Below, piece after piece: positions 58,047 through 58,280 of a stretch of DNA of 64,000 bases (positions within the stretch are counted from its first letter, which is position 1; each line of letters starts with the position of its first letter). Source of the stretch: Escherichia coli (lineage in GTDB: Bacteria; Pseudomonadota; Gammaproteobacteria; Enterobacterales; Enterobacteriaceae). The position numbers were made by a program, and so were the translations under genes. The notes beneath the pieces were generated by a model. That model was not told the origin of the DNA. It made no database searches and saw only the letters and a list, made by a program, of their open reading frames with translations. The stretch lies in NCBI RefSeq assembly GCF_050920415.1, contig NZ_CP169309.1; one strand, written 5' to 3'.

Positions 58047-58280
58047 ATTGGGATTTATGCCGTATTCCTGAAGTTCCTCATCATTGGAATGGATTTTCGG
58101 GCGAGAAAAGGATTTTATATGGATACTCTACTCATCATTTCTTCTTCTCATCATCAACAATTCACGTCTCTCTTCCGCGTTTAATAACGGATTATGATGT
58201 GCAAAAAAAAATATCTTTCGTTTCAGTTACCTGTAATTAGATACAGAGAGAGATTTTGGCAATACATGGAGTAATACAGG
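58047..58280 (+). promoter_or_regulatory. pgaA 5' leader with multiple CsrA-binding GGA motifs
   Basis: Established knowledge: pgaA has a roughly 234-nt leader bound by CsrA at six sites; the sequence shows GGA motifs across this interval, the last overlapping the Shine-Dalgarno (acaggatg). Confidence 0.65.

Follow-up and report, generated by a model that had tools for sequence, protein, structure and literature searches.

The 5′ untranslated leader of the pgaABCD operon of Escherichia coli K-12 is reportedly the subject of work by Wang et al. (2005, Mol Microbiol 56:1648). That work is summarized in a study of the same K-12 leader by Figueroa-Bossi et al. (2014, Genes Dev 28:1239; PMC4052769). 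According to the latter study, the K-12 leader is 234 nt long, and positions +61 to +107 form an imperfect hairpin, in which the left arm (61–81) carries the 5′-proximal CsrA sites and the right arm (82–107) constitutes the 5′ half of a C-rich rut region (PMC4052769). CsrA binding opens this hairpin, whereupon Rho terminates transcription; deletion of 61–81 removes both 5′-proximal CsrA sites, and changes of 2–3 nt in the upper hairpin alter both CsrA binding and read-through (PMC4052769). Other CsrA sites, one over the Shine–Dalgarno (SD) sequence and one over the initiation codon, mediate translational repression (PMC4052769, PMC7652899).

Here, we analyzed the counterpart of this leader in a 64,000-nt stretch of E. 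coli DNA, referred to in full as the window. The locus is laid out as follows:

56324 to 57690, minus strand: dgcT (ycdT), the divergent neighbor of pgaA, frameshifted; annotated as "frameshifted" in NZ_CP169399.1
58032 to 58037 (−11 to −6), plus strand: candidate −10 hexamer TATTTT, proposed from the sequence
58043 to 58280, plus strand: pgaA 5′ untranslated leader, 238 nt, with its start assigned from the homologous, published +1 of K-12
58281 to 60704, plus strand: pgaA coding sequence, 807 aa, intact, according to the open reading frame list and the RefSeq annotation of identical DNA
60713 onward, downstream of pgaA: pgaB

The PgaA open reading frame matched the NCBIfam equivalog model NF007468 over its full length, scoring 1439.7 bits (cut-off 1043). 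With dgcT starting at 57690 on the minus strand, 590 bp of divergent intergenic DNA separate the two genes, and the gene order dgcT / pgaABCD is the same as in K-12 and in the closest genome. The 601 bases around the leader matched 4,281 of 5,426 complete E. coli genomes, in which a gene annotated as pgaA always overlapped or adjoined the match. Their identity was 100% to strain MFDS1022581 and 95.1% to K-12 MG1655, and the leader was present at a coverage of at least 80% in 4,161 of the 5,426 genomes. Alignment with the K-12 leader revealed five substitutions and four extra A's (238 vs 234 nt; ~98% identity), distributed as follows:

58074 (A32U), 58124 (C82U), 58130 (G88A), 58198 (G156U) and 58220 (U to G): substitutions relative to K-12
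58203 to 58211, plus strand: A9 homopolymer run (five A's in K-12; six or eight in other alleles)

Because of the four extra A's, the position homologous to the K-12 +1 is 58043 and not 58047, and pgaA transcription would be expected to start there. The first-pass annotation had set the leader at 58047–58280, with a length of ~234 nt; the region stands, but the start does not, as 58047 is the ATG minus 234. That annotation had also read the segment as the pgaA leader, with GGA motifs fitting repression by CsrA, and this reading agrees with the full-length PgaA encoded downstream, the ~98% identity to K-12 and the retention of every GGA. From the intact PgaA, the shared locus order, the near-identity to K-12 and the conserved GGAs, we infer with high confidence that a non-K-12 E. 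coli lineage carries here an orthologue of the characterized pgaABCD leader, which most probably operates in the way described for K-12. The leader is a natural allele of the textbook CsrA-controlled leader, with the 5′-proximal, SD and AUG CsrA sites in place, and adds no new biology.

To our knowledge, Rfam holds no pgaA-leader family. A covariance-model scan of positions 57600–58500 against Rfam at E ≤ 10 returned no hit near threshold, the best being an unrelated miRNA model with 20.1 bits against a gathering cut-off of 72. When one genome per species was searched with an exact 21-mer spanning the SD and AUG sites, no homologue was found outside E. coli; the only matches were the E. coli representative and NZ_JUET01000049.1, a contig labelled Tannerella. 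This 382-bp contig, assigned to Tannerella forsythia ATCC 43037, is an E. coli pgaA promoter and leader, 95.9% identical to window positions 57940–58325, and is almost certainly a contamination of the Tannerella assembly. The pgaA leader is entirely absent from approximately 23% of complete E. coli genomes. The match in NZ_CP148339.1 starts at window position 57906 and the annotated neighbor is an EAL-domain protein, not dgcT, and in NZ_CM176323.1 the match is limited to the coding part of pgaA.

Seven GGA motifs lie on the plus strand within 58047–58280 (at 58051, 58086, 58091, 58110, 58121, 58189 and 58268), and an eighth, at 58279–58281, takes its A from the pgaA ATG. Relative to the homologous +1, they are located at +9, +44, +49, +68, +79, +147, +226 and +237. 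Only three GGAs occur on the opposite strand of this stretch, versus eight in the sense orientation. Random 238-nt windows drawn from the 64-kb sequence contained 2.67 GGAs on average, and 0.9% of them reached eight; mononucleotide shuffles of the leader contained 2.5 on average, and the probability of at least eight copies was 0.0011. The clustering is real, sense-strand-specific and ~3-fold above chance, so that the multiple GGAs noted in the first pass hold up in numbers (eight sense-strand copies vs ~2.6 expected, P ~0.001–0.009). Loss of these motifs on alignment with the characterized leader had been named there as a check, and none is lost: all eight GGAs are unchanged and occupy homologous positions in K-12 and in nine further alleles, the alleles spanning 94.7–100% identity. 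Among the 11 alleles, none of the 17 variable columns fell on the 24 GGA bases, an outcome with a chance probability of ~0.16; it cannot be shown from this that E. coli conserves the GGAs better than the remaining leader, and their invariance alone is not significant.

The number of GGAs overstates the number of CsrA sites, because a +1 to +137 RNA mutated in site 1 wholly loses CsrA binding (PMC4052769). Three of the GGAs (+9, +44 and +49) are upstream of, or outside, the characterized CsrA sites. Matches to the SELEX consensus RUACARGGAUGU, whose high-affinity form places the GGA in a hairpin loop, ranged from 5 to 9 of 12 positions across the GGAs, and only the motifs at +9 and +237 were predicted to be unpaired (0.98–0.99). 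The two site pairs, +68/+79 and +226/+237, have an identical GGA-to-GGA spacing of 11 nt. The elements of the leader, in 5′ to 3′ order, are as follows:

58044 to 58061 (+2 to +19), plus strand: 5′-terminal stem-loop, with a 5-bp stem and an 8-nt loop UGGGAUUU bearing the first GGA (58051–58053)
58067 to 58101 (+25 to +59), plus strand: second predicted hairpin, containing the GGAs at 58086 and 58091
58092 to 58172 (+50 to +130), plus strand: "bubble" richer in C than in G, the rut region, with 19 C vs 11 G and 14 YC dimers; interval taken from PMC4052769
58103 to 58123 (+61 to +81), plus strand: left arm of the anti-terminator hairpin, GAGAAAAGGAUUUUAUAUGGA, identical to K-12, with the two 5′-proximal CsrA sites
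58110 to 58112, plus strand: GGA of BS1, AAAAGGAUUUU, SELEX match 9 of 12
58119 to 58184, plus strand: 21-codon upstream open reading frame (uORF), MDTLLIISSSHHQQFTSLFRV and stop
58121 to 58123, plus strand: GGA of BS2, UAUGGAU
58124 to 58149 (+82 to +107), plus strand: right arm of the hairpin and 5′ half of rut, with the clade-specific C82U (58124) and G88A (58130)
58189 to 58191, plus strand: GGA at +147, AACGGAUUA, conserved
58268 to 58271, plus strand: pgaA SD sequence GGAG, 9 nt before the ATG, inside the SD-covering CsrA site CAUGGAGUA
58279 to 58283, plus strand: GGAUG, the CsrA site overlapping the initiation codon (ATG 58281–58283), 11 nt from the SD GGA

In the 5′ half, the terminal stem-loop was predicted with a pairing probability of 0.88 and an unpaired GGA (0.99), and its pairs are conserved, with one C–G changed to U–G; its GGA at 58051 is absent from the characterized CsrA sites. 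In the second hairpin, the GGA at +49 was predicted to be base-paired, and A32U (58074) breaks one pair in the window allele. The GGA of BS1 was predicted to be paired (probability of being unpaired 0.01), as the published model of melting upon binding requires. The base helix of the +61 to +107 hairpin, formed with 58145–58149, had a predicted probability of 0.96 vs 0.92 in K-12, and the minimum free energy (MFE) of this hairpin was −6.0 kcal/mol here vs −6.4 kcal/mol in K-12. When compared with shuffled controls, the folds of the leader and the hairpin were no more stable (z = 0.69, 0.17 and −0.22). The structure of the leader therefore rests on the published experiments, because the predicted folds are no better than those of shuffles.

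In the 3′ half, the GGA at +147 is a likely middle CsrA site, the middle ones among the six footprinted in K-12 being sites 3 and 4, and one of the differences between K-12 and the window, G156U (GAGGUGC to GAUGUGC), lies near it. The start-codon site, AAUACAGGAUGU, matched the SELEX consensus at 8 of 12 positions and was predicted to be unpaired with a probability of 0.98. The segment containing the SD and AUG sites, CAUGGAGUAAUACAGGAUG, is invariant in the 11 alleles. The GGA of acAGGAtg, which had been taken for the SD sequence in the first-pass annotation, instead overlaps the start codon; the SD sequence is GGAG at 58268–58271. For annotation, the leader should be entered as 58043–58280 and the SD sequence at 58268, and a GGA should not always be called a CsrA site.

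Orthology, every GGA, the predicted hairpin, the composition of rut and an intact pgaA are all retained in the window allele; CsrA binding and Rho termination would be expected for it by analogy with the K-12 literature. CsrA dimers would bind GGA-containing sites of the leader. Occupancy of the SD (58268) and AUG (58279) pair would block 30S binding and repress pgaA translation, and occupancy of the +68/+79 pair (58110 and 58121) in the left arm would melt the +61 to +107 hairpin. Melting would expose the C-rich rut region from 58124 onward, and Rho would then terminate transcription inside the leader. Upon titration of CsrA by CsrB, CsrC or McaS, the hairpin would hide rut, the ribosome-binding site would be free, and PGA would be made. 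The strain appears to retain the full set of cis-regulatory elements through which CsrA controls PGA, and regulation of its pga operon would thus be expected to follow that of K-12.

The window allele (at least 99% identity) was found in ~409 of the ~4,200 matching genomes. C82U and G88A, 6 nt apart, convert a predicted apical C–G pair into U–A and are the only double change in the sample; they belong to one clade, and hence represent one event. Linkage alone would account for a lack of U82/G88 or C82/A88 intermediates. Of the five substitutions located in predicted helices, four preserve pairing, this double change included. The A-run is 5, 6, 8 or 9 nt long among the alleles, and match lengths of 277, 278, 280 and 281 nt in an even genome sample suggest that roughly 85% have A5, 3% A6, 3% A8 and 7% A9. 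The length of the run varies even inside the clade sharing the window allele.

Several other explanations bear on how the leader should be read. The GGA clustering might reflect compositional chance and be uninformative about CsrA: GGA is a mere 3-mer, of which eight copies do occur in 0.9% of random 238-nt windows, three of the eight copies are not characterized sites, and their conservation within the species is not significant. However, the enrichment is strand-specific (8 vs 3), none of the four sites described in the accessible literature is disrupted here, and CsrA binding to the orthologous leader has been both footprinted and mutated. The published K-12 data effectively refute the chance explanation, which we regard as extremely improbable. 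It could also be proposed that the 5′ GGA pair serves as the SD sequence and start of a 21-codon leader peptide, the translation of which would shield rut, with CsrA repressing the uORF instead of melting the hairpin. BS1 is indeed located where the SD sequence of this uORF would sit (AAGGA, 58109), and BS2 overlaps its AUG (58119), a geometry that mirrors the pgaA pair with its 11-nt GGA spacing. The frame at 58119–58184 is open in all 11 alleles, and both clade-specific changes are synonymous in it. Nonetheless, the overall split of three synonymous to three non-synonymous substitutions carries no statistical weight, and the leader-peptide idea was tested in PMC4052769, in which an AUG mutant argues against a regulatory role; we consider it very unlikely.

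A further alternative accepts that the allele works like K-12 in kind but holds that it is quantitatively retuned, such that C82U/G88A, A32U and the change from A5 to A9 could alter CsrA/Rho attenuation and basal PGA expression. C82U and G88A lie in the apical part of a hairpin of "borderline stability", and the published mutants indicate that this stability is finely balanced (PMC4052769). When the K-12 apical structure was threaded on the window allele, it was 1.5 kcal/mol weaker (−4.9 vs −6.4). In addition, C82U makes site 2 read GGAU and raises its SELEX match from 6 to 7 of 12, A32U costs the upstream hairpin one pair, and with the longer A-run the 3′ half is spaced and folded differently. 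A predicted long-range UCUCUCU:AGAGAGA pairing also differs between the alleles, and the retuned allele would be a common one, given its ~409 carriers among 4,200 genomes. Against this, the overall hairpin differs by just 0.3–0.4 kcal/mol in MFE and ensemble energy (0.3 for the ensemble), with the base-helix probability unchanged; C82U and G88A are mutually compensatory, which argues for preservation and not for change; and all GGAs and the SD/AUG region are identical to K-12. We therefore consider retuning unlikely. That the lineage allele (C82U/G88A, A32U and A9) measurably shifts CsrA/Rho attenuation, with the A-run of 5, 6, 8 or 9 nt acting as a tuning knob, seems to us quite unlikely; if true, the set-point of PGA biofilm production would differ in ~10% of pga-positive E. 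coli. Regulation as published for the K-12 leader remains our preferred reading of this allele.

Upstream of the leader, the DNA from −65 to +31 of pgaA is identical to K-12. A consensus promoter scan found no convincing plus-strand sigma-70 site for pgaA, and the candidate −10 hexamer TATTTT has no good −35 element. The missing −35 would be expected of an NhaR-activated promoter; the scan outcome fits an activator-dependent promoter but is uninformative. A perfect 6-bp inverted repeat, TCCGAT-N7-ATCGGA, occupies 57982–58000 (−61 to −43 of the pgaA promoter), where the terminator scan flagged it as a hairpin; it could serve as an operator for NhaR, a LysR-type activator. Farther upstream, within window positions 56324–57977, dgcT is ~10% and the distal dgcT–pgaA intergenic region ~8% divergent from K-12, compared with ~2% for the leader. 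By megablast, an 81-nt dgcT segment found only 30 genomes, versus ~4,200 for the leader. These comparisons suggest either that the dgcT alleles are deeply diverged or that a boundary of recombination lies near 57978.

The first-pass annotation had described the divergent neighbor as a disrupted dgcT, and the sequence bears this out. A T8 to T7 contraction at 57256–57262 on the minus strand shifts the frame after approximately codon 144 and leads to a TGA stop at 57246–57244; restoring the missing base gives a 455-aa protein with GGEEF. Because the exact frameshift allele is private to one of 5,426 complete genomes, and its nearest relatives have T8 and an intact gene, the contraction is either a mutation of very recent origin or a sequencing error in the homopolymer. 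An in-frame ATG (57247–57245) overlaps the new stop as ATGA and opens a 307-aa open reading frame with an intact GGDEF domain, and it is conceivable that re-initiation could yield an N-terminally truncated cyclase with residual activity.

It had further been suggested that loss of dgcT may affect pga regulation. The frameshift is inside the coding sequence, with ~780 bp between it and the pgaA start site downstream. Given this distance and the identity to K-12 from −65 to +31, no cis effect on pgaA is expected. In the accessible literature, ycdT/dgcT is co-regulated with pga but has no link to expression of the pga operon (PMC4951805). YdeH/DgcZ is the diguanylate cyclase with demonstrated control over PgaD and PGA, and this control is post-translational, with c-di-GMP acting through PgaCD (PMC8461298). 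Deletion of ycdT lowered biofilm formation in CFT073 in one medium (PMC3484386). The suggestion thus finds no support, as the promoter is untouched, PMC4951805 reports no expression link and DgcZ is the demonstrated source; a connection between dgcT and pga would be speculation rather than a property of the leader.

Beyond dgcT, K-12 has IS3, ymdE and ycdU, whereas the window has a 181-bp repeat array and a tRNA-Ser gene. The array (55658–56320) comprises 3.7 tandem copies at 98% identity. It runs from within the 3′ end of tRNA-Ser(GGA) (55589–55676) to a point 4 nt away from the dgcT stop codon, and every unit opens with the 3′ end of the tRNA, after which come a terminator-like hairpin and a T-run. 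One more copy of the repeat is present in the closest genome than in the window.

Among known systems, the K-12 pgaABCD 5′ untranslated region shares with the window its locus, neighbors, promoter-proximal DNA, eight GGAs, left/right-arm hairpin, rut region, and SD and AUG sites. The leaders of glgC, cstA, nhaR, ycdT/dgcT and ydeH/dgcZ likewise have GGA sites, one of them over the SD sequence, and involve competition between CsrA and the ribosome (PMC7652899, PMC6028588). Compared with other CsrA-repressed E. coli leaders, pgaA has the largest characterized set, with six sites, and adds Rho-dependent attenuation via RNA remodeling, which the others are not known to use. The psl leader of Pseudomonas aeruginosa also precedes an exopolysaccharide operon that is repressed through its 5′ untranslated region by a CsrA-family protein, RsmA (PMC7652899), although the psl and pgaA leaders have no sequence homology. 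The two also differ in mechanism: RsmA stabilizes a hairpin between the SD and anti-SD sequences of psl, whereas CsrA opens the hairpin of the pgaA leader, exposes rut and directly occludes the SD sequence and the AUG.
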